A stretch of 32,000 nt of DNA from Candidatus Micrarchaeum sp. (GCF_016806735.1 NZ_CP060530.1:840001-872000); one strand, 5' to 3'. Counted from the first letter of the stretch, positions 5,493 through 23,207 are shown. Made by a program: numbers and translations. Notes: generated by a model not told the origin, from the sequence alone.

Positions 5493-5535
5493 CGTTGGAA
5501 GCGCCGCCAAGCTTTGTGCTGGCGGGCGGTGCGGC

Positions 5536-5892: not shown

Positions 5893-5999
5893 CTTAGCAC
5901 CTCTTTATGCATGTGGTATAATGTCCATTGCCTTATATATTAAGCCTTTTGTGTAGAATCGACATTAAGCGAATGGGCTGCTTTTAGGACAAGAACGCC

Positions 6000-6248: not shown

Positions 6249-6418
6249 TATGGTCCCTCAAATCCGCAGTTGCTGCACTTATATGTGTTTGCTATCTCCC
6301 TGCAGTGGGAGCACCTGACTATGTTGGTTTCGCCGCAGCTGGGGCACTTGAATTCGCTGTATTCATGAGTCAGCCTGCCGCATGAAACGCACACTTTTCC
6401 TGGTAAATCGTTTGCCAT
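6248..6418 (-). CDS. Small Zn-ribbon protein with four CxxC pairs (COG2888-like, translation-associated)
   Basis: Absent from the ORF track because it is under 60 aa. Hand translation: MANDLPGKVCVSCGRLTHEYSEFKCPSCGETNIVRCSHCREIANTYKCSNCGFEGP (56 aa). CxxC pairs are CVSC, CPSC, CSHC and CSNC. Its TAA stop overlaps the ef1b ATG (TAATG). This family is conserved next to aEF-1beta. Confidence 0.7.
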   Translation of the reverse strand: MANDLPGKVCVSCGRLTHEYSEFKCPSCGETNIVRCSHCREIANTYKCSNCGFEGP

Positions 6419-6424
6419 AAATTG

Positions 6425-8384: not shown

Positions 8385-9359
8385 TTATTTTTGAGGTTTT
8401 TTGTTGTAGTTCTCGTATTTTGTTGAGCGCTGCCATATCTCTTCGAATCTGGAAAGAGCCTCAGACCTGTTTATCGAGACTATGTGCTCGCTCTTCTTGT
8501 TTATTATGTTTATTGGAGGTATCTTGTACGCACTCTGCGAGTCTATTATAAGCCTTTCGTGCTGCTGCTGCGCGTCCGTATCCGACATAACCCTGAGCTC
8601 TAGTGAAACTCCCTTGTTGGACAACTCCTCTTTGAAATCGAAATAGCTCCTTTCAAAGTGGGAACCTAGCCTGTTTGCGCTTGTCAGCACCCTTACCAAG
8701 CTGTGGCCCTGTTCGTTGCCGTTCAGCAGCAGAAGAAGGTTTTCCACTGCCTTGTTGTCAAAGTGCATGTCGAGTATGCTCATGTCTCCTGAGAGCTTTG
8801 CAAAGAACTTCCTGGAGAGCACTAACATATTGGAATACGGTGTATCCGGGTTTATGTTTATCGGCCTTGCTGAATGCGTAGAATGCCTCCTGCTTGAATA
8901 TGAAAGCTCTAGAGAGCCAGCTATTATTCCCAGTGCAACGCCAAGGAACGGGCCAAGGCCCCGTATCGGGCCGAGGTAGAAGTCGGTGTTTAACACCCCG
9001 AGCAGCATCCCGAATACAACAGAAGAGAAGATAAGGCCGATGCCAAGCACCCTATAGCTTTGCTTTCCCAATAGCCATATCGCGCCTATTGCGAACATTA
9101 TCAATGCAAATGGCAGCATCACGTATGTGATGTGCACTGCTATGACTACTGCAGAAGATTCTGACAGTGATGCGAGGAGGGTGTTGGACGGGGTAATGTT
9201 GTATTCCGTTATCATTGAAGTTATGCCCTTTACCAAGCCCACAGAATATGACAGGATTTGCATGTAGTAGAAGTCAGAAAGCATCGCTATGAATCCTGCA
9301 AGAAGAGCCGAATACGCTAGGATTGCGTGATTTGATCCCTTGGACAGATTATCCTGCAT
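8385..9359 (-). CDS. Polytopic membrane protein with cytoplasmic C-terminal domain (cassette A, divergent partner)
   Basis: The ORF track gives 8385..9404. I prefer the ATG at 9359 (MQDNLSKGSNHAILAY...). It matches the N-terminal length of the paralogue starting at 23175 (MEIQRPSRSAHGRLAY...) and lies about 25 nt from a TTTAAATA box. Four to five hydrophobic helices, then a soluble domain of about 170 aa ('ILDMHFDNKAVENLL...VRVLTS...LELRV...HERLIIDS'). Confidence 0.65.
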   Translation of the reverse strand: MQDNLSKGSNHAILAYSALLAGFIAMLSDFYYMQILSYSVGLVKGITSMITEYNITPSNTLLASLSESSAVVIAVHITYVMLPFALIMFAIGAIWLLGKQSYRVLGIGLIFSSVVFGMLLGVLNTDFYLGPIRGLGPFLGVALGIIAGSLELSYSSRRHSTHSARPININPDTPYSNMLVLSRKFFAKLSGDMSILDMHFDNKAVENLLLLLNGNEQGHSLVRVLTSANRLGSHFERSYFDFKEELSNKGVSLELRVMSDTDAQQQHERLIIDSQSAYKIPPINIINKKSEHIVSINRSEALSRFEEIWQRSTKYENYNKKPQK

Positions 9360-9379
9360 ATGCATTACCAATAATTCAG

Positions 9380-9389
9380 ATTTAAATAG
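9380..9389 (-). promoter_or_regulatory. TATA-like box (CTATTTAAAT on the minus strand) for the cassette A membrane-protein gene
   Basis: Centred about 25 nt upstream of the ATG at 9359, which fits a leaderless transcript. It lies inside the longer ORF-track version of the gene. Confidence 0.35.
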
Positions 9390-9596
9390 CGCGGGCTCTT
9401 TCATCGCCCCAAGCGTATTTAGGCTGCAAACAATACCGTAAGCTTTATGCGCAAAGAAAAATTATATAGGTTTGTCCTTTTTATATAAGCGTATATTATT
9501 CTATAAGTAATTTTTGCTAGTAACATCAGCCATATTTAGAATAGGAGTGTATGTAAGTTTATTATAAATAGCATTCAAAACCACTATTGGATAATA

Positions 9597-9634: not shown

Positions 9635-11677
9635 ATGAACTTGCATGCAATGCTTATGTCATTTGTAATTTTTGCCAGTATTGCAATACTCCCGTCTTAT
9701 TCTTTCGCAAGCAGCAACTCAAGCTCCACGCTCAGTGCCAATGTAGTGGTTGGATGCCCTTTCTCATTAAGCATGGACTTGCCAAGCAACAGCCTTACCG
9801 TTATACCTGAATATGGCAATTACCTAATTAGTTATGAATTGAAGCCCTTGGTAAACTGCAGGGTTCCCGGAATGGATGGAAAATTGCTAATAGAATCAAG
9901 CAATGGAAGCATAGCCGAATCGGAAAGTGCCAGCGTTAAGTCGTTCAATTCCTTAGTAAACGGCACGGTTGGGTTTAATGCGTCGGAATTGGAAATTGGT
10001 AATTACAACGCTTCCCTTGGCTTTAAAAACAATCAGACTGAAAATTCAATAACTTCGGCTTTCACCGTTTTGGCCCCAGTAAGTATCGTGCTTAAGAACT
10101 TCACTGTCAGCAGCTCAGTGACTATCGGATCGCCTGTAAACTTTTATATTGAGCTTTCGAACATTGGCAATTATAGCCCCAGTGACATAGAACTATTTAT
10201 CAACTCTACCGCTCCAGGTGCTAGGATAATTACAAATGATGTAAAAAACATAACTGCTTATCCCTCCACAGAGAATGTAACACTTACTGAGTATGGATTT
10301 GCAGGTAAGCCAGGCACTTATACTGCATACGCTTATGCAGAATATAAAAAGTCGGCCCATGGAAGAAACTACACCAAGAGCAACGTATTGAACTTCACAT
10401 ATACGGTAAACTTACCAAGCCATTCTGCACCCCATCCGATAACAGTACCGCCAACTCCGATACCGAAGATACCCAAGGCAAATCTCACAACGGTACCATT
10501 ATACTTAACTAGTGTGCCGAATGCGACAATAGGCACCAGCATAGGCATATCAAACCCGTCAAATTCCACAGAGACCATAAACTTCACCGTTCCGTCATAT
10601 CTAAGCAATATCGTAAAGCTTTCAGAGAATAGCATCGCCTTGAGCGCTGGTGGAACCGTTTCGGTAAATTTGCAAATAAACAGCAGAAACCTCAGCTCTG
10701 GCATCTATAACATACCGATAAATGTAACTGCTACTCTCAACAACAGGACTAGCGTTTATACCGATTACGTTACTTATTCGGTCTCAGGGAAGGAACCCAA
10801 CAAACCGGTTATAAACACGGCAGTTGAGCTGCTCAACAACACTAACGATGGATACATAGTCGTTAGCATAAGCACCCCAAGCAACGTGACCATAACCAAC
10901 GGCACGGCAATAACCTATTTGCCGCAGGGGCTAATACCAAACGAGAGCTACATGGACGCGTACGGCGTACCAAACAACATAACTGAAAGCAACGGCTATT
11001 ATTACATAGAATGGCATATAAGCAAGCTTGGCCCTAACCAGAACATATACGCATACGTATACGTGAAGAGGCCCAGCAGCCAGCTCCTGATGAGCGGCAT
11101 AACCACCAATATATTCGTTCCGACATCGAGCACTGCTAGCATATTGAGGCTGCTTTATGTTGATTCCCCGACTTTCAGGACTTACGGCAATGGAACAACC
11201 GAAGTGGAATTGTTGTATACTGGATCATACGCAGAAAACATTACATTCGGCCTCACAGGGCCATATTATATGACAATACACAACTCTTCTCAGACAGTGC
11301 TTGCGGTTCCAAACCAAGTACTGTATATTTACTTCAACCAGCATGCGGGAGGAATAGCCGGCACTTCGAATGAGAAACTCTATATAACTGCGCCGAACGC
11401 AGCGCTTAACTACTCGGTAGCACTTATAGTGATGCCAAGCCCAGTCAACACCACAACAACCACTACAATAAAGCCAAACGCGCTTGCAACCGCGTTGAAT
11501 TCCATAGGCAATGTAGCACGTAAGTATTTTATTGTTTTAATAATTGTAGCTCTGGCAATAATATTAAGCCTTGCTTATTATTCTTACAATAATAAATCGC
11601 ACTATAAGAGGGATAGGATAGATAGGATAGAAAGTATAAAGAAACAGATAAAAAGGAATTTGGATGAAAAGCGATAG
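9635..11677 (+). CDS. Exported type-I membrane glycoprotein with CARDB/Ig-like beta-sandwich domains (cassette A)
   Basis: Signal peptide 'MNLHAMLMSFVIFASIAILPSYSFA'. CARDB-like stretch 'FTVSSSVTIGSPVNFYIELSNIGNYSPSDIELFIN' and Pro-rich linker 'HSAPHPITVPPTPIPKIPK'. Further beta-rich domains, C-terminal TM 'YFIVLIIVALAIILSLAYYSY' and a basic tail of about 30 aa. Dense N-x-S/T sequons. Paralogue at 23267-25273. Confidence 0.7.
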   Translation: MNLHAMLMSFVIFASIAILPSYSFASSNSSSTLSANVVVGCPFSLSMDLPSNSLTVIPEYGNYLISYELKPLVNCRVPGMDGKLLIESSNGSIAESESASVKSFNSLVNGTVGFNASELEIGNYNASLGFKNNQTENSITSAFTVLAPVSIVLKNFTVSSSVTIGSPVNFYIELSNIGNYSPSDIELFINSTAPGARIITNDVKNITAYPSTENVTLTEYGFAGKPGTYTAYAYAEYKKSAHGRNYTKSNVLNFTYTVNLPSHSAPHPITVPPTPIPKIPKANLTTVPLYLTSVPNATIGTSIGISNPSNSTETINFTVPSYLSNIVKLSENSIALSAGGTVSVNLQINSRNLSSGIYNIPINVTATLNNRTSVYTDYVTYSVSGKEPNKPVINTAVELLNNTNDGYIVVSISTPSNVTITNGTAITYLPQGLIPNESYMDAYGVPNNITESNGYYYIEWHISKLGPNQNIYAYVYVKRPSSQLLMSGITTNIFVPTSSTASILRLLYVDSPTFRTYGNGTTEVELLYTGSYAENITFGLTGPYYMTIHNSSQTVLAVPNQVLYIYFNQHAGGIAGTSNEKLYITAPNAALNYSVALIVMPSPVNTTTTTTIKPNALATALNSIGNVARKYFIVLIIVALAIILSLAYYSYNNKSHYKRDRIDRIESIKKQIKRNLDEKR

Positions 11678-12476
11678 CAATTTTATAGTAAGCGATAGGC
11701 CTTACATACTTAGGATATCTGCCCAGAAAGGAGGTGTGGGCAAGACAACCATAGCAGTGAACCTTTCTGTCGCGCTGAAATTGAAAGGCTATTCCGTATT
11801 GTTAGTGGATGCAGACGCGTCGAATCCATCCGTAGGGCTTCATCTTGGGCTCGAAAATTCTACAGGAGGATTCATAGACCTCTTGAAGGGAAAGGCTAAT
11901 TTAGAATATACCGTAATTACGCACGGGCCCACAGGGCTTGCAGTAATATGCAGCCCCATAAGCATGCAGGCCTTCGGAATGAATGAGCATGAAGTGGAAG
12001 TCGCGTACAATACCCTCAAGAAATCGGATTATGACATCGTAATAGTCGACACGCAACCGGGATATTTCCCTGATGTAATAACAAGGAAGATAGACCATAC
12101 GCTTATAGTAACAAATCCGGACATGCCTAGCTACATGAGTGCATTGAGGCTTTCCGAGTATTTTTCTAGCAGGAAAGTCCCAAACATGCTGCTTGTGAAC
12201 AGGGTAAGCAATAAAAAATATGAGATAAACATAAAGGAAATAAGGGAAACCTACGAAGGGGAAATAGCAGCAATAGTGCCTGAAGACGAAATAGTACCTG
12301 TGAGTATAGCCTCCAAGATACCGGCTTTCTTGCTTAGCCCAAAAAACAGGTTCAGCAAAGCGATTTTAGATCTTGCTGAAAAGTTGATAGAGGAATCCGG
12401 AATCCCGAAAGCTGGCGATTCTGCATATATCACAAAAACTGACAAGCATAAGCCAGGCGCAGGCCGCAAAAAATAG
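11664..12476 (+). CDS. MinD/ParA-family (SIMIBI) P-loop ATPase (cassette A)
   Basis: Deviant Walker A 'SAQKGGVGKTT', 'VLLVDAD' and Walker B 'DIVIVDTQPG'. No signal peptide or TM segment. The start overlaps the upstream stop by 14 nt. Paralogue at 25274-26092. Confidence 0.85.
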   Translation: MKSDSNFIVSDRPYILRISAQKGGVGKTTIAVNLSVALKLKGYSVLLVDADASNPSVGLHLGLENSTGGFIDLLKGKANLEYTVITHGPTGLAVICSPISMQAFGMNEHEVEVAYNTLKKSDYDIVIVDTQPGYFPDVITRKIDHTLIVTNPDMPSYMSALRLSEYFSSRKVPNMLLVNRVSNKKYEINIKEIRETYEGEIAAIVPEDEIVPVSIASKIPAFLLSPKNRFSKAILDLAEKLIEESGIPKAGDSAYITKTDKHKPGAGRKK

Positions 12477-12553: not shown

Positions 12554-15500
12554 ATGGAAATGAAGGGATACCTAATCACAATATGCATTTTTATTATGGC
12601 CCTTTCAATCTCATCGGCACAGGCTTTAGGAACAGCAAATTATAATTCGATAGTACCATCGCAAGCGAACAATCAAAACCAAAACGGAATAGGCAATACT
12701 TATCCGAACGGGTTAGCATATCCTGAAAATGAGCTTTCATCAATGTATTCCAATTTGTTCAACAAGAGCATGATAAAGGGCATAAACAGCCATTTTCTTG
12801 CCAATATTTCCAAAAATTTGGTAGCTTATGGCATAGGCCAGAGTTTTCAGAACGGCTCATACGTTTATAAAATAAACGCAGTGTATCCAAAAAACGGAGA
12901 TATAAATAGCATAGGAAACGAAACTTTTAGCCTGAGAATAATAAAGCCAATAGTTGGGAGTGACGGAAGTGTTATCCTGAAATCCAACTCTGCTTACATA
13001 CCGAGCATGATTAAGGTGCCTATAATATACAATGGAAGCAATCTGCTCTTGAACCTTTCTGTAAAACTCGATTCATCATATAAAAATGAGATAACAGACA
13101 TAGTATTGAGCAAAACACCCCCGCCGAACTTAGAAAGCCGGTTCAGCGGAACCCCATATTATTACATTCATGTAAATAGCTCGATAAACGACACGAATGT
13201 CATAGATGCAAATTACACTTTTGCAGTAAACAAAAGCTGGATAAATTCCCAGAATATAAGCCCAGGGCAGGTTGCCCTATATAAGTATGTGGGTGGCAAA
13301 TGGATGGAAATGCCAACCTTGCTGATAGGCAACAATTCCACTGCGTATTTTTACGATGGTGAATCTGATTCCCTATCCGATTACGTAATCTCATATTCTA
13401 CAGGCAGCGCAACGGGCAGCGCGAATCCGCTGAGTGTTACATTGCCCGCAGGCTACAAGCTTTACCTATGTGATGCAGGCGCGAACTACACTTTCTCAAC
13501 GACAGCGGCAAACAGCTGGACTGCTCTTCAAAATGCTACTTCCCCTTCAAGCCCGCCGCCGGCAGCTTCAGTAGGTTATCAGACAAACAATGTATGTACA
13601 GCATACACCCCGGCAATAAAGGGGCGCAGGAATGCTTATACAGTAGGCCTTGCAGTAGCAGGCATTGGCCTAAATATAACAAATTACAATTTTTATGGCG
13701 CATCGGCCAACAGCAGCACAACCGCAAGCTTGACGTATCCAGTCACAGTTAATGGCTCTTTTGTTGCCATACTTGTAGCTTCTGGTTATTACGGATTGAC
13801 AGGCTTGCCCACGGTCCCAAGCGGTTGCAGTATTCAGCAGATAACTACAAATGCTACAAGCTATGAATCTGCTTACATATCAACCTGCAATAACGTCCAA
13901 AAAGGAAGCTATAACGCAACTGCAAGCAACGGCGATGGAGGGGCAACAGTAATAGGATCTTTTGTATTCCCGCCAGGCAATGTAATATTGGATGACAACC
14001 CGACTGGAGCAGGAAGCATATTTACTAACAATAAGACTTATACTAATGGGCAGAACAGCTTGCTCTTAGGAAAAGGAGAGATATCTGCAAAGCCTGCGAA
14101 CAACTTTGTATTCACTAACTGGAGCGTTAGCAATGCGAACCTGACGGTGCAGAATGCATATGCGCAGACTACGAACCTGACAGTAGTCGGAAACGGAATA
14201 TTGACTGCAAATTACAACGGAATAACCACTTTCTCAGAAAGCGGGCTGCCTTCCGGAGCCACGTGGAGCGTTGTTTATGACGGAATAACCAACAGCAGCG
14301 CATTGAGTTCTATATCTTTTGACACTGTGCCAGGCAGCCACACTTTCGCAATAGCAAACGTGACGTACAACGGCAAAACATATATCGCAAAGCCGAGTTC
14401 TGGCAGTGTTGTTGCGGGAAACGTTACAAGCGTAGCATTCAGCGAGGAAGGAGTATTGTCTTTAGTAGTATCGTCTAACAGGACTGCATATGACACATCA
14501 GATATAGTAACTGCAACTGCGCCTCTGCCATCGCAAAGCATTGAGATATTGATAGGCCAGGGCACTGCAAAAGGCGTTCTTGTTTCATCAGGCACTGGAA
14601 GCGCATCGTGCAACCTTTACAGCACATGCAATGCAAATGTACCGTTGGCTGCAGGACTCTACAACGTTAGCGCATACCTTCCGTCCACAGGGAACGTAAT
14701 CAGCGAAGAGGTAAACATAACGAAGGCTTCGCCTTCATTAACTCTTTCAGTGCCTAATAGTTATGTTTATGATGGAAGCGGAGGAACCATAGATTTTGGG
14801 ATAAGTTCATACAACAATCAATTGCAAGGCACGCTTTACGTTAACAATGCAAGCGTAGCTTCCACATTTTCCAGCAATACTTACACAACATCTGCAAGCG
14901 TAGGAAACTACAGCATTGCGTTCAAAACAAGCGGCAATGTGAATTATACGAGTGCATCGAGAACGGGAAAATTCAGCATATACCCAAAGCTTTATACTGT
15001 AAATTATACTTCTGCAGGAGCAGTTGGGACAACCGATACTCTTTCCGTTAGCACTTCAACAGGTTATGATATTTATTTATGCGATGGTGGAACAAGCTAT
15101 GGTACGCTAACTTATACTACAGGAACCATAGACCTTTCTAACACTTATTCTTATATAGGAAACCAAACAACAAATACGTGCACTGAAACTACAACCGGTC
15201 CGGATCTTGCCGAGGCAATACTAGGAGTTAAAGCTTTGCATACTTATACTTTATACGATTCTTCAGGAACCGCAACCGACAGCTTTACTTATAATGTAGT
15301 AAAGAACGATTCGTTTGTGGCAATAATGCTGTCTTCGGGATATTATGGCCTTTCTTCTGCACCTACAGTTCCAAGCGGCTGCATAGAAAAGGTTTATGAT
15401 ACTGGAGGCGATACATACGAAAGCAGCTACATAGCAATATGCCAATCGCAGATAGCTGGGCAGTATACAGTAAGCTCTTCTTCTACGCTTGGAGGGTATA

Positions 15501-17914
15501 TAACTGCTGGCGCTTATGTATTTTCACCTTACCAACTGGTTCTTGATGACAACCCAATAGCAGGAACAATAACGACAAATGGAAAGACCTTTGCCAATGG
15601 GCAAACGACCAATGTTATAGGAACTGGAACAATAACTGCGAATCCGCCGAAGAATTTTGTCTTTACTAACTGGGGCGTGAGCAACGCAAACCTGACGGTG
15701 CAGAATGCATATGCGCAGACGACGAACCTGACAGTAGTCGGAAACGGAATATTGACTGCAAGTTACAACGGAATAACTACTTTCTCAGAAAGCGGGCTCC
15801 CTTCCGGAGCCCCGTGGAGCGTTGTTTATGACGGAATAACAAACAGCAGTGCATTGAGTTCTATATCTTTTGACACTGCGCCAGGCAGTTACACTTTCGC
15901 AATAGCAAACGTGACGTACAACGGCAAAACATATATCGCAAAACCCAGTTCCGGCAGTGTTGTTGCGGGAAACGTTACAAGCGTAGCATTCAGCGAGGAA
16001 GGAGTATTGTCTTTGGTATTATCGTCAAATAAAACAGCATACGACATATCAGACATAGTCACAGCAAGAGCGCCGCTGCCATCGCAAAGCATTGAGATAT
16101 TGATAGGCCAGGGCACGGCAAAAGGTGTTCTTGTTTCATCAGGCACTGGAAGCGCATCGTGCAACCTTTACAGCACATGCAATGCAAATGTACCGTTGGC
16201 TGCAGGACTCTACAACGTTAGCGCATACCTTCCGTCCACAGGGAACGTAATCAGCGAAGAGGTAAACATAACGAAGGCTTCGCCTTCATTAACTCTTTCA
16301 GTGCCTAATAGTTATGTTTATGATGGAAGCGGAGGAACCATAGATTTTGGGATAAGTTCATACAACAATCAATTGCAAGGCACGCTTTACGTTAACAATG
16401 CAAGCGTAGCTTCCACATTTTCCAGCAATACTTACACAACATCTGCAAGCGTAGGAAACTACAGCATTGCGTTCAAAACAAGCGGCAATGTGAATTATAC
16501 GAGTGCATCTAAAACTGGCAATTTTTCCATCGCCCCAAAACTGTATACAGTGAACAGTACCGAGGCATTGAATTCGAGCACCACTGACACATTAACAGCT
16601 TATGCCCATGCAAATTATCTAACCTACATATGCGATGGCGGGGCTGGGACTGCAGCGGTTACGTACACAACCGGAACTGTAAGCCAATATTCCGGAGGTG
16701 ATGACTCTTATATAGGCGAGCAGACAACCGATGCGTGCACCGAGACCACAACAGGGCCGGATCTTGCTGAGGCTGCAGCAGGAGTCTATGCAAAACCTTC
16801 TTATTCCCTTTATAAAGGCTCATACACTTATGGAGGCACGCTTGATTACAAAGTAAATGAAACTGGATCGCTCGTAGTTGTTGCAATAAGCTCAGGCGGA
16901 GGAGAAATATCAGGAATTCCTAGCGCTCTCAGCGGCTGCTATAGCAAAGGCATAGAATCCGGCAGCGATGGCCTTGAATCAGCCTACATTGCGATATGCC
17001 AGGACCAGAAAGCAGGCTCATACTCGATTGCTGAGAGCGTTTCTAGTGGAGAAAATTTTGCAATGGCGGCTTATGTATTTCCGCCATACGCTTTGACAAT
17101 GGATGACAATCCAGTAGCTGGAACCATAACCACTAATGGCAAGACATTTGCAAACGGACAGACAACAAACGTAATAGGTACCGGGACAATAACTGCGAAT
17201 CCGCCGAAGAATTTTGTATTCACGAACTGGAGCGTGAGCAACGCAAACCTGACGGTGCAGAATGCATATGCGCAGACTACGAATCTCACTGTTGTGGGAA
17301 ATGGAATATTGACTGCAAGTTATAACGGGATAACCACATTTTATGAATCGGGATTGCCTTCAGGGACTCTGTGGAACTTAACTTATGATGGATTCAAAAA
17401 CGCAAGCACAGGAAATTACATAAGCTTTGACACCGTTCCTGGACCACACAGCTATGCAGTAGGAAACGTGCTCATAAACGGCTATAATTATACACCATCG
17501 GTTTATTCCAGCACTTTGACCGCAGGAAATACAACAATAATAAAATTTACTCCGCCCGTTTGCACTATATCGCTTAACACGAATACGATATCCTTTGGGA
17601 ACCTCGACCCAGGCACGATATATCCTGACAGCGTGCAGATTATTGACACCAATAGCGGAGACGCTACGGCAAACATTCTGCTATCAGGCACAAATTGGAC
17701 AAATCCGACAATAAATTTCGGAGCAACAAATACTTCATGGAGCATAACCTCGTTGAGTTCATTTGGCCCGAATTTGCTTTCAAGAAGCCCAAGAAACACA
17801 GCAATAAGCATAGGGCCAAGCTCGTCGAACAGCATATACTTCGGCTTGAATGTTCCAGGGGCAATACCTGCAGGAACGTACACACAGACAATAGTCATAG
17901 AAAACAGCTGCTGA
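12554..17914 (+). CDS. Giant secreted repeat glycoprotein / putative adhesin (1,786 aa, cassette A)
   Basis: Signal peptide 'ITICIFIMALSISSAQA'. PGF-pre-PGF-like segment (about 13157-13399: 'YYYIHVNSS...FAVNKSWINSQNISPGQVALYKYVGGKWMEMPTLLIGNNSTAYFYDGESDSLSDYVISYS'). Three super-repeats of about 517 aa follow. Each has a Cys-containing module ('YLCD[AG]G...PSGC...ESAYI..C') and an InlB-B-repeat-like module ('ANPPKNFVFTNWSVSNANLTV...LTVVGNGILTASY'). Each also has an 'ESGLPSG..W' beta-sandwich module of the kind seen in Thermoplasmata/Sulfolobales surface proteins; the first two units also carry Ig-like modules (absent from the third). Ends in a 120-aa Cys-bracketed module. No TM anchor. Confidence 0.8.
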   Translation: MEMKGYLITICIFIMALSISSAQALGTANYNSIVPSQANNQNQNGIGNTYPNGLAYPENELSSMYSNLFNKSMIKGINSHFLANISKNLVAYGIGQSFQNGSYVYKINAVYPKNGDINSIGNETFSLRIIKPIVGSDGSVILKSNSAYIPSMIKVPIIYNGSNLLLNLSVKLDSSYKNEITDIVLSKTPPPNLESRFSGTPYYYIHVNSSINDTNVIDANYTFAVNKSWINSQNISPGQVALYKYVGGKWMEMPTLLIGNNSTAYFYDGESDSLSDYVISYSTGSATGSANPLSVTLPAGYKLYLCDAGANYTFSTTAANSWTALQNATSPSSPPPAASVGYQTNNVCTAYTPAIKGRRNAYTVGLAVAGIGLNITNYNFYGASANSSTTASLTYPVTVNGSFVAILVASGYYGLTGLPTVPSGCSIQQITTNATSYESAYISTCNNVQKGSYNATASNGDGGATVIGSFVFPPGNVILDDNPTGAGSIFTNNKTYTNGQNSLLLGKGEISAKPANNFVFTNWSVSNANLTVQNAYAQTTNLTVVGNGILTANYNGITTFSESGLPSGATWSVVYDGITNSSALSSISFDTVPGSHTFAIANVTYNGKTYIAKPSSGSVVAGNVTSVAFSEEGVLSLVVSSNRTAYDTSDIVTATAPLPSQSIEILIGQGTAKGVLVSSGTGSASCNLYSTCNANVPLAAGLYNVSAYLPSTGNVISEEVNITKASPSLTLSVPNSYVYDGSGGTIDFGISSYNNQLQGTLYVNNASVASTFSSNTYTTSASVGNYSIAFKTSGNVNYTSASRTGKFSIYPKLYTVNYTSAGAVGTTDTLSVSTSTGYDIYLCDGGTSYGTLTYTTGTIDLSNTYSYIGNQTTNTCTETTTGPDLAEAILGVKALHTYTLYDSSGTATDSFTYNVVKNDSFVAIMLSSGYYGLSSAPTVPSGCIEKVYDTGGDTYESSYIAICQSQIAGQYTVSSSSTLGGYITAGAYVFSPYQLVLDDNPIAGTITTNGKTFANGQTTNVIGTGTITANPPKNFVFTNWGVSNANLTVQNAYAQTTNLTVVGNGILTASYNGITTFSESGLPSGAPWSVVYDGITNSSALSSISFDTAPGSYTFAIANVTYNGKTYIAKPSSGSVVAGNVTSVAFSEEGVLSLVLSSNKTAYDISDIVTARAPLPSQSIEILIGQGTAKGVLVSSGTGSASCNLYSTCNANVPLAAGLYNVSAYLPSTGNVISEEVNITKASPSLTLSVPNSYVYDGSGGTIDFGISSYNNQLQGTLYVNNASVASTFSSNTYTTSASVGNYSIAFKTSGNVNYTSASKTGNFSIAPKLYTVNSTEALNSSTTDTLTAYAHANYLTYICDGGAGTAAVTYTTGTVSQYSGGDDSYIGEQTTDACTETTTGPDLAEAAAGVYAKPSYSLYKGSYTYGGTLDYKVNETGSLVVVAISSGGGEISGIPSALSGCYSKGIESGSDGLESAYIAICQDQKAGSYSIAESVSSGENFAMAAYVFPPYALTMDDNPVAGTITTNGKTFANGQTTNVIGTGTITANPPKNFVFTNWSVSNANLTVQNAYAQTTNLTVVGNGILTASYNGITTFYESGLPSGTLWNLTYDGFKNASTGNYISFDTVPGPHSYAVGNVLINGYNYTPSVYSSTLTAGNTTIIKFTPPVCTISLNTNTISFGNLDPGTIYPDSVQIIDTNSGDATANILLSGTNWTNPTINFGATNTSWSITSLSSFGPNLLSRSPRNTAISIGPSSSNSIYFGLNVPGAIPAGTYTQTIVIENSC
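14102..17365 (+). repeat. In-frame tandem super-repeats, period 1551 then 1557 bp, mosaic identity (giant gene A)
   Basis: The anchor 'ctgacggtgc' occurs at 14141, 15692 and 17249. Block 14576-14958 is base-identical to 16127-16509 (383 bp, compared by eye). Flanks carry scattered substitutions, and the second half of each unit is strongly diverged. Confidence 0.85.
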
Positions 17915-17930
17915 ATATGGAGTGTGCCAA

Positions 17931-18620
17931 ATGCGATTCTTTGAGTTAATTGCTATTGCAACGCTTTTGGCAGTTTTTTCTTTTTCTATTCTTTCAACTA
18001 CGGCACACGCGCAATTGGGAGAAGTTGCTGGTGAGCCTACATTCTATGTAAACATAAGCGGAACCTACAGCTACAATTACACCTTCATAAACCAGGGATC
18101 AACGCCCATACCTTTTAAGACCATAATAACAAATTTCAGGACTGCAGCAAAAAATGCTACTGCACCGATAGTCACAGCTTCCCCGATGTCTGGCACCATA
18201 CCTCCAAACTCTCAGATCAAAGTAAGAGTAAACATATACCTTCCGTCCAAGAATAATACACCAGGGATGGAATGGCAGGGAGTGCTTGAAGTAGTCGTAA
18301 ATTCTACTTCTAGCAGTACTGGTGGCGCAGTAATAGATGAGGGAGTTGCAAAAGTAGTTACCATAGTGGCAACCGCACCAAAGCCCAATTACACCGCTGA
18401 AATTCTAGTAATACTTGCAATAGCGGTTATTGTCATAGTAGTTGCAGCATTCGCATACATGAAAAGGTCCAAGAAGACGGCAAAAGGCAAGTCACAGATT
18501 TCTGGGGCAAAGGCCAGAGCTACAGTAAAGAAGCCTTCATCCGCAGGCAGGAAGAAAGCATCAAAGAGCAGGAAAAAAGGCACACGCAGGAAGAGGAAAA
18601 ACAGCAGTAATAAAAGATAA
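17931..18620 (+). CDS. Exported beta-rich protein with C-terminal TM anchor and poly-basic cytoplasmic tail (cassette A)
   Basis: The ORF track starts at GTG 17922. The ATG at 17931 (MRFFELIAIATLLAVFSFSILSTTAHA) with GGAG at 17914-17917 is more likely. Beta-rich ectodomain of about 130 aa, TM 'AEILVILAIAVIVIVVAAFAYM', then about 50 aa of K/R-rich tail ('KKASKSRKKGTRRKRKNSSNKR'). Confidence 0.6.
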   Translation: MRFFELIAIATLLAVFSFSILSTTAHAQLGEVAGEPTFYVNISGTYSYNYTFINQGSTPIPFKTIITNFRTAAKNATAPIVTASPMSGTIPPNSQIKVRVNIYLPSKNNTPGMEWQGVLEVVVNSTSSSTGGAVIDEGVAKVVTIVATAPKPNYTAEILVILAIAVIVIVVAAFAYMKRSKKTAKGKSQISGAKARATVKKPSSAGRKKASKSRKKGTRRKRKNSSNKR

Positions 18621-18657: not shown

Positions 18658-20514
18658 ATGGACTATTTATTCAGGTTTGACAAGCCGAGGCCCAATCAGG
18701 AAGCCATGATAGGCGACGTTTATTCCGCGCTTGAACATAGGCGCGACATATTCATAAACGCGCCGACAGGCATAGGCAAGACCGACGCATCTCTTGGAGC
18801 TGCTCTCACGTTCGCGCTGAAGAACGGGCTTGACGTTTTCTTCCTTACGCCGAAGATATCGCAGCACAAGATAGCGATGGAAGCGGTTTCCGGAATAAAA
18901 AAGAAATTCGGGCTTGATTTCAGCTTTGCAGACATAGTTGGAAAGCGCAACATATGCATAAACGACAAGGTAAACGCCATAGAAAGCGACGCTTTTTACG
19001 GCTCGTGCGAAAGCCTGGTCAAGGCAGGAAAATGCACATATTTCTCGCGATCGAAGAATTTTAGCACAGACGATAAAGGGCTTGCAGATGCCATGGAGAA
19101 CGGGCACAATGCGCTTCTAGACTATTCCTATGGGAAAGGAGTATGCGCTTATGAGATAGCAGCCAAGTACGCGAAGAACTGCAGGGTCATAATAGCAGGG
19201 TATTCGCATTTATTGAATCCTTACAACAGCGGCGCTTTCCTGAAGAAGATAGGGCACAGCATAGACAATGCGATTATAATATGGGACGAGGCGCACAACC
19301 TCATAAACATAGCGAATTCATATTTAAGCACTTCGATATCAGAGCTTGGAATAGATGCGGCCGAAAGGGAATTGAAGGCGATAAACAACAGCATAGATCT
19401 TGATTACCTGAAGTTCGCAATGAAGAAGCTCGCCGCAAAGAAGCTTTCAAAAGGGATGAGCGAGGCCTTGGTTGACAAATCGGACATGTCTGAATTCATG
19501 GAAAGCGAGTATGAAAAATTGATAGATGATCTTGAGAAGGCGGGTCTTGAGTACATACAGGCAAAAAACGCCAAGCGCTCTTCCATACTGCATATAGCAA
19601 GGTTCCTAAGGGGATTCCTTGATGCGGATGAATCCGCCGCGAGGATAATAAAGGCGAGGAACGGGCTCGCAAGGCTCAACGTTAGCTGCTTATACCCCGA
19701 TAGGGCACTGCCGATATTGCAGGAGGCCTATGCAAATGTATTCATGAGCGCCACGATGGAGCCCATGAGGATGTATTCTGATATGTTCAAGGTGGCAAAC
19801 TCTGAGATGAGAAGCTATGCGTCCCCATTCCCAAAGCACAATAAGGCCGCATTCATAGATAATGAGTTTACGACAAAATTCTCACAAAGGTCCAACGAGC
19901 AGTATATGAAGATGGCAAAAAGGATAGAGGAGATAAAGGACAGCGTGCCTGGGAGCGTAGCCGTATTCTTCCCGAGCTTTTCCGTGCTCGAGGGCATATC
20001 AAGGCACGTGAATGTTGCGAAAAAATATGTGCAGAGAAGGGAGATGCAAAGCCAGGCTACAGACGCATTGATGAAGCGCTTTACAGAGGACGACGGCTCG
20101 ATGCTAATGGCAGTCATGGGCGGCAGCTTCAGCGAGGGCATAGATTACAAAAACAACTCGATAAAGGGCATAATCATAGTGGGCATACCGCTAACTGCGC
20201 CTGACCTTGAATTGAAGCTGAGGATTGCATATCTCGACAAGCGCTTTGAAGGCAGGGGAATGGATTACGCTTACATAATACCTGCGATAGTGCGCTCGGT
20301 CCAGGCGGCAGGAAGGGCGGTAAGGAGCGAGAGGGACAGGGCTGTGCTCGTCTTTATGGATAAAAGGTATTCGTGGCGCATGTATATGGCTGCCATATCC
20401 AACAGCATAGAGATCTCGGACTCTAAGGATTACATGAAATCAATAAGGTTCTTCTGGGACTTAAATGATGTAGTAGATAAGGTAGTAAAGGCCAAGCCCG
20501 ATAAGAACTCCTAA
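18658..20514 (+). CDS. xpd: XPD/Rad3-type Fe-S DNA helicase
   Basis: Walker A 'NAPTGIGKT' and DEAH box 'WDEAHN'. Four Cys between them (NIC..GSC..GKC..GVC) fit the XPD 4Fe-4S domain. C-terminal helicase motif 'QAAGRAVRSERD'. Confidence 0.9.
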   Translation: MDYLFRFDKPRPNQEAMIGDVYSALEHRRDIFINAPTGIGKTDASLGAALTFALKNGLDVFFLTPKISQHKIAMEAVSGIKKKFGLDFSFADIVGKRNICINDKVNAIESDAFYGSCESLVKAGKCTYFSRSKNFSTDDKGLADAMENGHNALLDYSYGKGVCAYEIAAKYAKNCRVIIAGYSHLLNPYNSGAFLKKIGHSIDNAIIIWDEAHNLINIANSYLSTSISELGIDAAERELKAINNSIDLDYLKFAMKKLAAKKLSKGMSEALVDKSDMSEFMESEYEKLIDDLEKAGLEYIQAKNAKRSSILHIARFLRGFLDADESAARIIKARNGLARLNVSCLYPDRALPILQEAYANVFMSATMEPMRMYSDMFKVANSEMRSYASPFPKHNKAAFIDNEFTTKFSQRSNEQYMKMAKRIEEIKDSVPGSVAVFFPSFSVLEGISRHVNVAKKYVQRREMQSQATDALMKRFTEDDGSMLMAVMGGSFSEGIDYKNNSIKGIIIVGIPLTAPDLELKLRIAYLDKRFEGRGMDYAYIIPAIVRSVQAAGRAVRSERDRAVLVFMDKRYSWRMYMAAISNSIEISDSKDYMKSIRFFWDLNDVVDKVVKAKPDKNS

Positions 20515-21432
20515 GAACAACGGAGGTATTGCAGGGAGGGCCCTCTTGAATTTTCTAAGTATGAACATTGTTATCATAAGCCCCAGTATTGCTCCGAACA
20601 CTATGAAGAAGCTCGGGACAAAGCTCAATGTAAGCTTGTATGCCGCCACAGCGACCATGAGCGGTATGGCAAGATCCCCTGTGCCCAATGCCACGTTGGC
20701 GGATACCGGCACCATACCGTTTGTATTGGATCTCTTCATTATCGAGAGTATCCTTTTGCCTCTTGAGCCAGATTCCTTGAGCTCCTTGTTGTATTCCCTC
20801 AACTCCTTTTTGCTGAAGCTCGATTTCGGAAGCCCTTCCACCTCGTTCATGTCCACCATGAAGGCCAGATTGTTCTCGGTAACCACATTGGCCAGCGTTA
20901 TCATGTGCTTGGTTATGAACACGGCAACGAAGTCGTATATGGCAAGCAGGCCCATGAAGATAAGCGCTACGAAGAAGCTGAAGCCGAACCCCAGCACCAC
21001 GCCCACTCCGATACTTGCCAATATTGCAGCTACGTTCTTGAGATTCGTCCATTTGTTCTTTGCGACTACAAGAGCTATGGCTATGATCACAGCTCCTGCT
21101 GTCGATATATTTGAGCTTTGCGTAATATACGCGAGGATTATGAAGAATACGTAGAATGATGCTATGAATATTATCACGGCCTCTATTATCCTAAACAGCT
21201 TAGCCCCGTGATAGAACTTGAATACTATGATCATGGCGATTGCTATGACGATTATGTAGCCTATAAGCAGGAATGCGCTTGTCGGGCTGTTTGCGACCTG
21301 TGCGCTTGCGACCTCGGAATAGGTTGCACCGTTAAAATACAACGTGGATATCATGAGCCCTCCGAATTGGACAATCATGAACATTGCTAATATCCCAAGC
21401 AGTTGCCTGTTCTCTATAAGCCTTTTTTCCAA
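20461..21432 (-). CDS. Presenilin / signal-peptide-peptidase-like intramembrane aspartyl protease (A22 family)
   Basis: Polytopic protein with 'LLAIYDFVAVFITKHMITLA' (YD motif), 'ALGTGDLAIP' (GxGD motif) and a C-terminal 'LPAIPP' (PAL-like). TTG start preceded by AGGTG with a 5-nt spacer, only 13 nt after the mcm-fragment stop. Confidence 0.8.
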   Translation of the reverse strand: MEKRLIENRQLLGILAMFMIVQFGGLMISTLYFNGATYSEVASAQVANSPTSAFLLIGYIIVIAIAMIIVFKFYHGAKLFRIIEAVIIFIASFYVFFIILAYITQSSNISTAGAVIIAIALVVAKNKWTNLKNVAAILASIGVGVVLGFGFSFFVALIFMGLLAIYDFVAVFITKHMITLANVVTENNLAFMVDMNEVEGLPKSSFSKKELREYNKELKESGSRGKRILSIMKRSNTNGMVPVSANVALGTGDLAIPLMVAVAAYKLTLSFVPSFFIVFGAILGLMITMFILRKFKRALPAIPPLFLGVLIGLGLYYLIYYII

Positions 21433-21445: not shown

Positions 21446-22390
21446 TCAATCCGCCTCGTGATGGACAAGCTTTATTATCCCCTGCCTTGGCCTGTATATG
21501 TCGCCAGAGCGCTCAAGCTCCGATAGATATTTGCTTGCGGTTGTGGAGTCTATGCCTGCGGCTTCGGCATCCTCTATCACTTTTTGTATCTTTATGTTGC
21601 TGTCCGACTCCTCAAGCTTCTTTATTATGTTAAGTATTGAATTCATGCGGTCTACCTTCTCCCTCGGCATTCCGGTCAATATCGTATCTATGTCTATGCG
21701 GCCTCCCGTATCCAATGCCAATGACTTAAGCATGAACCTGCTAAGCTCTATTGCAGTCTCAGAATCGGATAATTCAACCACGTCAGAAAGCCTTGACTTC
21801 GCGCTCGCCTCGCTCATCCTCACCAATCCCTCTATCTGCCTCGGGGTTATGGGAACGGCGCCCTGCCTTTGGCCAGTCTTTCTCAAGTCGACATAATATT
21901 TCTGTAAATATTCGCTGGCCTCCTGGCTCAGCCTTGGCGATACGTTCTTGCGTGCATATGCAATGTATTTCCTTAACAAATCCGAGTCTATAGGAGGCTC
22001 TTCGACTTGCTCAAACCCTTTTATGTCAGCAAGCCTTGCGCCTGCCGCCTCATGCTGCATAAGTATGTGCTTTGCTATGTTCCTATCCGTGTCCTCGTCC
22101 ATCACGTCGGTTATTGGGAATATGAGGTCGAACCTTGACAATAGCGTAGGAGGTATGTCGAACTGCTCAGCGGGATACTGGTGGGGATCGAACCTTCCGA
22201 ATTTCGGGTTCGCAGCAGCAAGCACAGCAGCCCTTGCACTGAATGTGGCTATTATACCCGCTTTGGCTACGCTTATGGTCTGCGATTCCAAGGCCTCGTG
22301 AAGCGCGGCCCTGTCGTCCTGGCTTATCTTGTCGAATTCGTCTATGCACACTATGCCGCCACTGCCCAGGACCATGGCTCCTGCCTTCAA
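21446..22390 (-). CDS. mcm: MCM replicative helicase, C-terminal half only (5'-truncated; probable pseudogene or gene remnant)
   Basis: Starts inside the AAA+ core: 'LKAGAMVLGSGGIVCIDEFDK' (Walker B), 'ALHEALESQTISVAKAGI', 'AAANPKFGRF' and the arginine finger 'LSRFDLIF', then a winged-helix-like tail. The N-terminal domain and Walker A are absent. The ORF-track start is a TTG. In-frame MCM-like sequence ('AERDDFSEGGWT') continues upstream to about 22430 and then stops. Confidence 0.8.
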   Translation of the reverse strand: MKAGAMVLGSGGIVCIDEFDKISQDDRAALHEALESQTISVAKAGIIATFSARAAVLAAANPKFGRFDPHQYPAEQFDIPPTLLSRFDLIFPITDVMDEDTDRNIAKHILMQHEAAGARLADIKGFEQVEEPPIDSDLLRKYIAYARKNVSPRLSQEASEYLQKYYVDLRKTGQRQGAVPITPRQIEGLVRMSEASAKSRLSDVVELSDSETAIELSRFMLKSLALDTGGRIDIDTILTGMPREKVDRMNSILNIIKKLEESDSNIKIQKVIEDAEAAGIDSTTASKYLSELERSGDIYRPRQGIIKLVHHEAD

Positions 22391-23175
22391 TGTCCAGCCG
22401 CCCTCGGAGAAATCGTCGCGCTCTGCAACTTGTTTTTCATTTCCTCCTCGAAATCAGTATAACCCCTGTCGAAATGCGCTCCGAGCCTTTCAGGCCCAGA
22501 CAGTATCCTTACATTTTTGACGTTTGATGCGCTGTCATTGAACAATGCGAGCATGTTTTCCATGGCCTTGCTGTCGAAATGCATGTCCAGTATGCTTATG
22601 TCGCCCTTAAGCCTTGCGAAAAAGTCCTTTGACAGCAACAGCATGTTCGAGTATGGGGTTTCCGGATCTATGCTTATGGACCTTAACGAATGGGCCTCCT
22701 GCAACCTGCTCGCTATAGTAATGCCCTTTATGCCTACGTATATGCCCAATGCAACGCCTATGAAAGGCGCCAGGGTTATTATGGGCCCTATGTAGAAGTC
22801 AGCGTCCATCAGGGCAAGCAGCATACCGAATATCAAAGATGAAAAAAGCATCCCTACGCTCAATGTCTTGAGGTTCTGCCTTGTTATGAGCAGCATTGCG
22901 CCTATGCTGAACATTATGAGCGTGAATGGCAGCATAACATATGTTATATGGACAGCTATTGCAAGCGCGGAAGTGCCCTCGAGTGATGTCAATAATGTGT
23001 TTGAAGGGGTTATGTTGTATGTAGTTATAATGGAAGTAATTCCCCTGACCACTCCTACGCTATATGACAGGAACTGCATGTAGTAGAAATTCGAAAGCAT
23101 GGCTATGAATCCTGCGGCGAGCGCAATGTACGCCAACCTTCCATGTGCACTTCGTGATGGTCGCTGAATTTCCAT
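22387..23175 (-). CDS. 3'-truncated paralogue of the cassette membrane protein (cassette B)
   Basis: Collinear with 8385-9359 ('AAGFIAMLSNFYYMQFLSYSVG...ILDMHFDSKAMENML...FDRGYTDFEEEMKNK'). It then diverges into 13 unrelated codons that are out-of-frame mcm sequence before the stop. It lacks about 75 C-terminal residues present in copy A. Start taken as ATG 23175; the ORF track uses TTG 23196. Confidence 0.6.
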   Translation of the reverse strand: MEIQRPSRSAHGRLAYIALAAGFIAMLSNFYYMQFLSYSVGVVRGITSIITTYNITPSNTLLTSLEGTSALAIAVHITYVMLPFTLIMFSIGAMLLITRQNLKTLSVGMLFSSLIFGMLLALMDADFYIGPIITLAPFIGVALGIYVGIKGITIASRLQEAHSLRSISIDPETPYSNMLLLSKDFFARLKGDISILDMHFDSKAMENMLALFNDSASNVKNVRILSGPERLGAHFDRGYTDFEEEMKNKLQSATISPRAAGH

Positions 23176-23207
23176 ATTTATAGTTTTGAAAGGCAAGTAA
23201 TAAAGTT

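Follow-up and report, generated by a model that had tools for sequence, protein, structure and literature searches.

The systems closest to the locus described here are the chaperone-usher pili, the WxL/WxLIP (Csc) clusters of Lactobacillales and Bacillales (PMC1534035, PMC9772566, PMC10599100) and the usher-less donor-strand polymers of archaea. The genetic logic of the WxL clusters, at the level of architecture only, is shared by clusters A and B of the present locus and by about 30 related loci: a small protein consisting of a signal peptide and a domain, a large protein that ends in this same domain, an Ig-like partner ending in a TM helix, and a further small anchored protein. In AF2-multimer predictions for the WxL system, the membrane-anchored WxLIP protein supplies a strand that completes the WxL sandwich (PMC10599100), a precedent for the docking proposed below. 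The archaeal AbpA of Pyrobaculum, Sulfolobus threads and Pyrodictium cannulae are Sec-secreted sandwiches that polymerise by donor strands in the absence of an usher; they are homopolymers with no giant tip, no donor-strand TM anchor and no conserved ATPase operon, unlike the arrangement considered below. The question addressed here is how DPANN archaea such as Micrarchaeota, whose genomes abound in giant surface proteins that lack both an annotation and a visible anchor, hold physically on to their hosts.

The window, i.e., the whole stretch of 32,000 nucleotides of a Candidatus Micrarchaeum genome that was analysed, contains two related gene clusters, A and B, with the following features:

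8385-9404, minus strand: polytopic membrane protein of 339 aa, divergent, upstream of cluster A
9635-11677, plus strand: putative anchor A, 680 aa, with a signal peptide, CARDB-like beta-sandwich domains and a C-terminal TM helix (residues 624-652)
11664-12476, plus strand: MinD/ParA-type ATPase A, 270 aa, with the deviant Walker A motif KGGVGKT, overlapping the end of the anchor A gene
12554-17914, plus strand: giant A, 1786 aa, with a signal peptide, a PGF-pre-PGF-like region, repeats and the terminal module
17552-17911 (stop codon 17912-17914), plus strand: module of giant A, the last 120 aa
17561-17563 and 17909-17911, plus strand: first Cys of module A and its terminal Cys
17922-18620, plus strand: Ig-TM protein, 232 aa, with a signal peptide, one Ig domain of ASH/PapD-like type, a TM helix (residues 155-183) and a long Lys/Arg-rich tail
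22387-23196, minus strand: truncated paralogue, 269 aa, of the 339-aa protein (61% identity over 241 aa), upstream of cluster B
23267-25273, plus strand: putative anchor B, 668 aa, 52% identical to anchor A, with a C-terminal TM helix (residues 616-646)
25274-26092, plus strand: MinD/ParA-type ATPase B, 272 aa, beginning right after the final base of the anchor B gene
26160-31565, plus strand: giant B, 1801 aa, of the same architecture as giant A, with the PGF-pre-PGF domain at residues 179-296
31194-31562 (stop codon 31563-31565), plus strand: module of giant B, the last 123 aa
31203-31205, plus strand: first Cys of module B, whose terminal residue is also Cys
31620-32000 and past the window end, plus strand: small free-standing subunit Micr_00920 of Ca. 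Micrarchaeum, with a TTG start, 177 aa in its full form
31620-31724, 31734-31760 and 31770-31772, plus strand: signal peptide, NTVTANVAV strand and first Cys of Micr_00920, followed by its module

The first-pass annotation had proposed that both giants end in one and the same module of 120 or 123 residues, which is confirmed by 63 identical positions of 123 (51%, E 1e-45), and that the open reading frame at 31620 encodes this module directly behind a signal peptide, which also holds (52% identity to module B over 69 aa, E 7e-21), the final 25 residues of Micr_00920 recurring unchanged as the last ones of giant B. Both giants terminate in ...IPAGTYTQ.I.I.NSC with the Cys as the final residue, and the conserved Trp residues of the module are found in the contexts G.NW and SNT.W. 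Giant A contains three repeats of about 517 aa with InlB-B-repeat-like domains; in a search of both giants for membrane spans, none was found beyond the N-terminal hydrophobic segment, leaving these proteins without an anchor. Micr_00920 is absent from the protein list of the published co-culture proteome table.

A profile search with the module retrieved 418 cluster representatives at E <= 1e-3, of which 209 were at E <= 1e-10, i.e., a likeness far beyond chance, and all 418 belong to Micrarchaeota and bear no family name. In the searches of Pfam, NCBIfam and PDB sequences no match to the module reached the threshold. The PDB sequence and profile matches were rejected as noise (the LCI peptide at E 0.07-0.26), as was a match to BasC (E 0.015, 15 bits against a cut-off of 260). 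By its sequence, the module is thus a previously unnamed family restricted to Micrarchaeota. It is always found either in small proteins, in tandem doubles or at the extreme C-terminus of large proteins. Only three Pfam families recurred among the sub-threshold matches of the 76 members: GH123_N_2 in 16 (best E 1e-4), SCPU in 10 (0.0035) and DUF4402 in six (0.0066), with Micr_00920 itself scoring 14.4 bits against DUF4402, for which the cut-off is 25.2.

The gene order of anchor, MinD-type ATPase, giant (where there is one), one to three small or tandem subunits and Ig-TM protein is kept in dozens of Micrarchaeota loci. Each operon has a single anchor and never more than one giant, so that the numbers of strand donors and acceptors would be equal. 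In almost all related loci the final module gene is followed by a homologue of the Ig-TM protein; the copy belonging to cluster B lies beyond the window end (L001, 1949-2677). This protein gives sub-threshold matches of the ASH/CFAP65/Hydin type, and its PDB profile matches include CFAP65 (E 5.6e-6) and the FaeE chaperone (E about 1). The ATPases contain KGGVGKTT and exceed the cut-offs of AAA_31, CbiA and ParA, while the match to TIGR01969 (minD_arch), at E 3e-29, is below the cut-off of that model. No usher-like or other assembly pore and no two-domain chaperone of the PapD type is encoded in the operon. The 339-aa membrane protein was not found beside the related operons elsewhere, and its membership in the system is therefore doubtful.

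Cys is the final residue in 155 of the 159 module proteins. In an alignment of 275 sequences the first and the last Cys form the top co-varying pair (0.373 against 0.279 for the next one), and in the tandem proteins inspected the two Cys of the first module are either both there or both missing. This co-variation indicates that the module is clamped by a disulfide between its first and last Cys. The terminal Cys and the invariably C-terminal position in the large proteins could also be read as marks of a sorting or secretion domain, comparable with the T9SS C-terminal domain or the archaeosortase signals, in which the terminal Cys would be the site of processing or attachment and which would be recognised by a dedicated apparatus comprising anchor, Ig-TM protein and MinD-type ATPase; the same operon does encode an ATPase and two membrane proteins, and the giants possess a PGF-pre-PGF domain in the absence of PGF-CTERM. 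However, proteins consisting of one or two modules only would then be signals without cargo, all these proteins have ordinary N-terminal signal peptides, and the last Cys co-varies with the first one even in the internal first modules, which fits a disulfide rather than a terminal modification. Moreover, MinD/ParA ATPases are known as positioning factors, not as translocation motors. A sorting function is thus highly improbable.

The AlphaFold model of the module monomer, built from an alignment of 76 module sequences, is a beta-sandwich with pLDDT of 94.9 and pTM of 0.85; these sequences were used instead of an 11-sequence alignment of the full small precursor, whose model was unusable (pLDDT 51). 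Residues 1-18, comprising the N-terminal strand (Nte) considered below and Cys16, participate in no beta-ladder of the model. The 'FG' that had been taken from the sequence for a turn lies within a beta-strand (residues 24-30 of the mature small protein) of this confident model, and no such turn is seen. In the comparison with PDB folds no match was significant (E of at least 4.4e-3, none at 1e-3, TM 0.34-0.50), and against the viral structures Foldseek gave nothing at E <= 1e-3. The proposed likeness to donor-strand fibre subunits is retained insofar as the top-ranked PDB matches are rich in donor-strand pilins (E 4e-3 to 0.4, TM 0.34-0.47), such as CfaB (E 4.4e-3, prob 0.98), FimG (5.7e-3, prob 0.99) and FimA, PapH and the PapG pilin domain (TM 0.44-0.47), but it is weakened by the N-terminal domain of GH123 (5l7u/5l7r), a self-complete fold that matches equally well and has the best TM of all (0.50, prob 1.0). 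The more specific likeness to the SCPU/Csu pilins was not upheld, with SCPU and DUF4402 being below threshold and CsuA/B giving hhalign P of 0.088 with a single sequence and 0.13 with a profile, which was narrow and derived almost wholly from Acinetobacter and metagenome records. Likewise, neither TasA nor the Sulfolobus thread subunits are among the 50 fold matches listed, and the module members scanned have no match to the Peptidase_M73/TasA Pfam family; the TasA-like archaeal AbpA (7ueg) is found at rank 9 with a weak score (E 0.079, prob 0.63) and a cannula subunit (9h8b) at E 0.53, both with TM of 0.34-0.36 (AbpA 0.34).

The equal standing of the GH123 N-terminal domain brings in a different reading, by which the module, as a self-complete sandwich of lectin-like or S-layer-binding type without strand exchange and a functional counterpart of the WxL, SLH and CBM domains, would fix proteins non-covalently to the glycosylated surface of their own cell or bind host glycans, with the small proteins as soluble or surface-bound lectins. 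The module monomer does fold confidently alone, GH123_N_2 is the commonest of its weak Pfam matches, and the conserved Trp, Asn and Thr residues of the G.NW and SNT.W contexts could make a sugar-binding face. The S-layer of the Micrarchaeon is heavily glycosylated (bioRxiv 10.1101/2021.04.28.441871), a further point in favour of this reading. The carbohydrate-binding modules CBM35 and CBM36 themselves, however, come lower among the fold matches and with low probability (0.16-0.25). We consider the lectin reading unlikely, and the distribution of the Nte, which it leaves unexplained, speaks against it.

The Nte is a conserved strand, V-x-A-x-V-x-V, located just upstream of the first Cys. It scores at least 8 bits in 92% of the modules behind a signal peptide (n=130), in 92% of those behind another module (n=119) and in 5% of those behind a non-module domain (n=106). 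No such motif precedes the module in giants A and B, and in two large proteins that end in a pair of modules it is present on the second module only. Since the Nte matrix was derived from the small and tandem proteins, their own scores involve some circularity, which does not extend to the contrast with the giants or to the matches on the anchors. In the 275 sequences the strand was too conserved for its covariation with the module body to be informative. The monomer model is very confident in the absence of a partner, and the Nte itself has pLDDT of 87-93 in it, so that this strand may just lie against the domain that carries it, a point against strand exchange. Judged by eye from the sequence, the precursors have n-h-c signal peptides ending in A-x-A (..NVAFA, then SSS) followed by a polar beta-strand, and the traits of type IV pilins, namely a class III signal peptide and a retained hydrophobic N-terminal helix, are not found in them.

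The lectin reading gives no reason why the Nte is carried by free and tandem modules and by the unrelated anchors and is missing from 95% of the modules behind other domains, nor why the operon is tight and contains exactly one TM-anchored Nte protein. The same distribution bears on the view that sees in the module a common structural Ig-like domain of Micrarchaeota surface proteins without a special part in assembly, with the Nte as a lineage-specific context of signal-peptidase cleavage or maturation. Beta-sandwiches are ubiquitous in archaeal surface proteins, and all the database similarities are weak, as this view would have it. However, in the tandem proteins the second Nte is kept on a short linker behind the first module, far from the signal peptide, the position of the module is invariant, and the operon is kept across the phylum, all of which leaves an ordinary Ig-like domain with a very small chance.

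In the 680- and 668-aa proteins, the strands TLSANVVV (9728-9751, anchor A) and SLTANVVV (23357-23380, anchor B) are followed by Cys41 and Cys42, respectively, and a short charged tail follows the TM helix of anchor A. Their mature N-termini had been described as resembling the module. The short strand plus Cys is indeed shared (TLSANVVVGC and SLTANVVVVPGC), but the module itself is not contained in these proteins, and homology of their N-terminal domain to it was rejected (hhalign P 0.083). The Nte matrix picks the mature N-termini of the anchors, with seven of 25 scoring above all 600 control ORFs and anchors A and B reaching 13.5 bits (top 0.17%).

That the anchorless giants are held on the cell through this module by partner proteins, as had been hypothesised, is backed by the conserved operon and by the Nte distribution, the strand being carried by the anchors as well as by free or tandem modules but not by those of the giants; together they suggest that the parts clip together in the manner of a pilus. 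The best reading is docking by strand insertion among a tip giant, subunits and a membrane anchor, to which we give somewhat less than an even chance. The module would be a secreted docking unit, each copy accepting an Nte strand given by the next protein in the chain. Since their C-terminal module has no Nte, the giants could only accept a strand and would sit at the distal tip as adhesins; the small and tandem-double subunits, carrying both Nte and module, could donate as well as accept and would serve as a stalk or adaptors; the 668/680-aa proteins, with an Nte behind the signal peptide and a terminal TM helix, could only donate and would be the proximal membrane anchor. The chain of cluster A would run from giant A straight onto the 680-aa anchor, and that of cluster B from giant B through the small subunit onto the 668-aa anchor. 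The Ig-TM protein (ASH/PapD-like) may cap or chaperone the subunits at the membrane, and the MinD-type ATPase, encoded by a gene that overlaps or adjoins that of the anchor, may act from the cytoplasm to position the complex. Against the docking reading, it leaves the role of the MinD ATPase in the operon without explanation, and a pore for assembly is missing from the genes of the operon, as is Micr_00920 from the proteome table; moreover, two papers on A_DKE that were consulted describe no filaments. No paper linking Micrarchaeota to donor-strand assembly was found, and a broader search of the literature gave nothing relevant among the papers listed.

Thus, a phylum-restricted module family, a conserved five-gene cassette and a sequence rule for the carriers of the donor-like strand are defined here, which make a model of tip, adaptor and membrane anchor directly testable. 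A more far-reaching proposal, which we regard as rather doubtful, is a strand-exchange assembly of Micrarchaeota's own, unrelated in sequence to the chaperone-usher, TasA/ABP and thread systems, in which an Nte-less giant is clipped through Nte-bearing subunits onto a TM protein donating the last strand, with a membrane-tethered PapD-like Ig chaperone and MinD-type positioning, and by which these DPANN symbionts would attach to their Thermoplasmatales hosts. If true, it would be an independent, usher-less and membrane-anchored strand-exchange assembly in archaea, parallel to the Gram-negative pili and the Gram-positive WxL system, and likely host-contact adhesins would have been named for a cultivated Micrarchaeon.

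Among the known systems, the GH123 N-terminal domain differs from the module in being self-complete within an enzyme and in having no Nte, terminal Cys pair, free-standing form or comparable operon. Homology to the WxL domain was rejected, there being no WxL Pfam match or W-x-L motif in the 38 and 76 module members scanned. The WxLIP matches of the partner proteins are too sparse for a claim, with WxLIP_PGBD in three of 28 Ig-TM proteins (best E 2.3e-5) and WxLIP_HBD in one of 27 anchors (22.2 bits, the cut-off being 28.9). The organism lacks peptidoglycan, the putative donor strand is N-terminal rather than an internal hairpin, and nothing in the WxL clusters corresponds to the MinD ATPase or to the tandem-double subunits. 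From the chaperone-usher pilins the module differs by the absence of a significant sequence or fold match and by a disulfide that would link the region of the first strand with the terminal residue. There is neither an usher nor an outer membrane, the chaperone candidate is a membrane-anchored single Ig domain, and the proximal end is a 670-aa TM protein with a MinD-type ATPase in the operon, in an archaeal host. However, as in the chaperone-usher systems, the subunits are small secreted beta-sandwiches with a long closing strand, G.Y.Q.I.I, and an Nte of alternating small hydrophobic residues soon followed by Cys (CsuA/B starts with AVTGQVDVKLNISTGC, the Micrarchaeota subunits with ..NVTANVAVEGVC). 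The giants are like FimH and PapG in having the subunit domain at the C-terminus without an extension, the second Nte on the linker of the tandem proteins recalls the engineered pilins complemented in cis by a donor strand, and an Ig protein similar to the PapD superfamily is encoded next door.

Two paralogous cassettes, both on the + strand, were recognised in the window by reading its ORFs, with the following components:

9635-11677, +: cluster A, 680-aa membrane-anchored protein (anchor-680)
11664-12476, +: cluster A, MinD/ParA-type ATPase
12554-17914, +: cluster A, giant protein of 1786 aa (giant A)
17922-18620, +: cluster A, 232-aa protein
23267-25273, +: cluster B, 668-aa membrane-anchored protein (anchor-668)
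25274-26092, +: cluster B, ATPase
26160-31565, +: cluster B, giant protein of 1801 aa (giant B)
from 31620, +: cluster B, small ORF, extending past the window end

The in-window part of the small ORF is identical to Micr_00920 of Candidatus Micrarchaeum sp., a DPANN archaeon, and its full length of 177 aa is given by the public contig L001, which has the same sequence as the window; there, the gene for a 242-aa homologue of the 232-aa protein comes next, ahead of the helicase gene that also follows cluster A. The XPD/Rad3-type helicase of the window lies at 18658-20514, and the stretch 115-8269 is occupied by housekeeping genes (FtsZ, a thioredoxin-fold protein, isocitrate dehydrogenase, a Rad50-like SMC ATPase and a Lon-C-domain protein). 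Between the two clusters, a presenilin-type signal-peptide peptidase (20461-21432, -; Pfam SPP, E 1.2e-20) could be relevant to processing their many signal peptides. The MCM ORF at 21446-22390 (-) is a C-terminal fragment only: it lacks the N-terminal domain and Walker A, and retains positions 112-224 of the Pfam MCM P-loop together with lid and winged helix. It shares 4 nt with the ORF of a 269-aa membrane protein (22387-23196, -), a truncated form of cluster A's 339-aa membrane protein (61% identity across 241 aa). Cluster B looks like a segmental duplication of roughly 13.6 kb, whose left edge has cut both the MCM and the membrane-protein genes.

The terminal module attributed to both giants by the first-pass annotation was borne out: their final 120 and 123 residues are 51% identical (E 1e-45) and end in ...YFGL.VPGAIPAGTYTQ.I.I.NSC, so that Cys closes both proteins. 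The 177-aa protein is indeed the same module behind a signal peptide, its last 25 residues being the same as those of giant B. Hydropathy agrees that the giants are anchorless, since the N-terminal signal segment is their sole hydrophobic segment; the 680/668-aa and 232-aa proteins combine such a segment with a single C-terminal transmembrane helix. The proposed resemblance of the 680/668-aa N-termini stood in part: a strand and a Cys are in common with the small protein, but the first domain of these anchors was rejected as a copy of the module by profile-profile comparison (P 0.083). The anchors, which include CARDB/NPCBM-type sandwiches, have exactly two Cys, both within that first domain (C-P-F ... 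N-C). The giants carry 60-68 N-glycosylation sequons, and each anchor about 30. Within each giant, a unit of about 1551 nt (517 aa) is present in three tandem copies (14008-17415 and 27681-31082, +) and includes a Cys-containing domain and an InlB-B-repeat-like (Flg_new_2) domain; the copies are 72-89% identical over a 300-nt reference stretch, and two of them look identical across several hundred residues of the giant B protein. A PGF-pre-PGF domain occupies residues 179-296 of giant B (26694-27047; TIGR04213, 51.6 bits against a cut-off of 28), despite which the PGF-CTERM archaeosortase signal is absent.

The profile search against 1.84 billion cluster representatives retrieved 418 proteins with the module at E <= 1e-3, 209 at <= 1e-10 and 46 at <= 1e-30, any name given by a source being 'hypothetical protein'. 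Three architectures were distinguished, namely small proteins of about 165-190 aa with a signal peptide and one module, tandem two-module proteins of about 315-340 aa, and large proteins, the longest of 3421 aa, in which the module comes at the very C-terminus. The credible organism labels are Micrarchaeota throughout, and a few short contigs labelled Marsarchaeota, Methanothrix or Gammaproteobacteria are probably mis-binned. The module matched no Pfam, NCBIfam or PDB sequence model at threshold. When 76 non-redundant modules were scanned, recurrent Pfam matches were limited to three families, every one sub-threshold: Glyco_hydro_123_N_2 (16 modules, best E 1e-4), SCPU (10, best E 0.0035) and DUF4402 (6, best E 0.0066); the remaining listed families gave one match each, except the related GH123_N with three. 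The alignment of the window's small protein to DUF4402 runs almost end to end, at 14.4 bits against a cut-off of 25.2.

Cys is the final residue in 155 of the 159 family sequences compared, and in the tandem proteins inspected the first module has either both Cys (P0014-P0016 and others) or neither (P0011-P0013). In APC-corrected mutual information over 275 unique modules (effective number 204), the first and last Cys form the top pair of the whole matrix, at 0.373 with the runner-up at 0.279, which is the co-variation signature of a putative intramodule disulfide tying the domain's beginning to its final residue. The same co-variation counts against the terminal Cys as an attachment site. A sorting domain is an improbable reading of the module.

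A shallow alignment gave an AlphaFold pLDDT of 51, and the mature small protein modelled with the 76 module sequences reached pLDDT 94.9 and pTM 0.85. The model is all-beta (strands 19-21, 24-30, 35-45, 53-59, 74-77, 95-101, 114-122 and 130-141); the 'G.Y.Q.I.I' segment forms the long strand that closes it, and the supposed 'FG' turn falls inside the second strand. Residues 1-18, containing the strand motif and Cys16, enter no beta-ladder in the monomer model, yet have pLDDT 87-93.

The likeness to donor-strand fibre subunits is partly supported by Foldseek, in that such pilins dominate among the PDB matches listed, with weak statistics and none at E <= 1e-3. CfaB (E 4.4e-3, prob 0.98, TM 0.36), FimG (E 5.7e-3, prob 0.99, TM 0.43) and FimA, PapH and the PapG pilin domain (TM 0.44-0.47) are among the top-ranked matches, and MyfA, SafA, EcpA, PapE, the archaeal bundling pilin AbpA (E 0.079) and a Pyrodictium cannula subunit also appear; viral structures returned nothing. 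The N-terminal domain of GH123, a self-complete sandwich, scores as well as the pilins (prob 1.0, TM 0.50), in keeping with a self-complete lectin-like domain for surface binding, which is a rather unlikely reading of the module; a plain structural domain is as improbable as the sorting one. Membership in the SCPU or Fimbrial families was not established, because the profile-profile comparisons with CsuA/B were not significant, either with CsuA/B alone (P 0.088; query sequence an exact match to PDB 7zl4) or with a profile of 70 relatives (P 0.13).

The most informative result is the distribution of the strand directly ahead of the first Cys. It is conserved in the small proteins (n=61) and in the first (n=29) and second (n=92) modules of the tandem proteins, with the consensus N-V-x-A-x-V-x-V at positions -11 to -4 relative to the first Cys, Ala at -8 in 55-97% per group (at least 75% in small proteins and first modules) and Val at -4 in 84-95%. 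No position upstream of the first Cys is conserved in 69 large proteins. With a scoring matrix built from the small and tandem proteins, and presence taken as at least 8 bits, the modules divided as follows:

Strand motif according to what precedes the module
Signal peptide: n=130, motif in 92%, median 14.8 bits
Another module: n=119, motif in 92%, median 12.9 bits
Non-module domain: n=106, motif in 5%, median 1.2 bits

The two distinct large proteins ending in two modules (P0029, P0071) bear the motif on the second only. The module can therefore exist without the strand, yet free modules and those that come after another module keep it strongly conserved. The same matrix detects the mature N-termini (L-x-A-x-V-x-V-x-C-P-F) of the unrelated, membrane-anchored proteins of 570-720 aa: 7 of 25 such anchors scored above all 600 control ORFs and 20 within the top 2% of controls, the window's two at 13.5 bits each (top 0.17%).

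Scanning one genome per species yielded 56 loci, essentially all in Micrarchaeota, whose gene order was derived from ORF-level BLAST against the window's proteins. The recurrent order is anchor, MinD-type ATPase, an optional module-ended giant, module proteins (one to three small or one to two tandem) and the 232-aa homologue, as in L008, L023, L027-L030, L032, L040, L050, L053 and L054. The anchor and ATPase genes overlap or abut, and in almost every locus the final module gene is succeeded by one of the 232-aa type; no counterpart of the window's divergent 339/269-aa membrane proteins was found beside the operon in the related loci. Within L040, L047, L050 and L053, some operons have three consecutive single-module subunits and others one or two tandem-double subunits, which suggests that the length or composition of the stalks is defined but specific to the lineage.

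The 232-aa family comprises one Ig domain, a transmembrane helix and a Lys/Arg-rich tail. ASH, CFAP65, Hydin and Cep192 families belong to the PapD-like superfamily, and the Ig domain has consistent sub-threshold matches to domains of these types (Cep192_D6 in 21 of 28 members, sub-threshold; CFAP65 E 5.6e-6 and Hydin 4.8e-5 in the PDB profile search). In the protein of 17922-18620 (+) and its homologues in L001-L057, the mature N-terminus A-Q-L-G-E-x-A-G is strikingly conserved, and a conserved strand G-A-x-I-x-x-G-x-A-K-I stands immediately ahead of the helix; the cytoplasmic tail, 40-100 residues long, consists almost purely of Lys, Arg, Ser and Ala.

Docking of the module by strand insertion is a possible, tentatively held reading. 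The strand distribution fits the logic of donor-strand systems, in which neighbour-binding subunits carry the extension, the large adhesin bears a subunit domain without it, and the last strand is supplied by a proximal element. Since every operon has a single anchor and none has more than one giant, strand donors would equal acceptors. Giant A would sit directly on anchor-680, and the chain of cluster B would run from giant B through the small subunit to anchor-668. A short heteromeric stalk would be a likelier product than long polymerised filaments.

Within the library searched, the literature search found no paper linking Micrarchaeota with donor-strand assembly. In two papers on the cultivated strain, the S-layer protein Micr_00292 is described and there is no mention of pili, adhesins or these genes, and Micr_00920 is absent from the strain's proteome list. 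The module family and cassette appear undescribed so far. In gene logic, the nearest overall counterpart comes from Gram-positive bacteria, the WxL/WxLIP cluster, where the WxL sandwich is predicted to be completed by a strand of a membrane-anchored partner (PMC10599100); at sequence level, no relationship to WxL was found. In the tandem proteins, the second strand lies on a short linker behind the first module, the same arrangement as in engineered in-cis complemented pilins (CfaB fusions 3f83/3f84, among the Foldseek matches). The family and cassette are best filed, mechanistically, as a variant of strand-complementation docking outside any named family.
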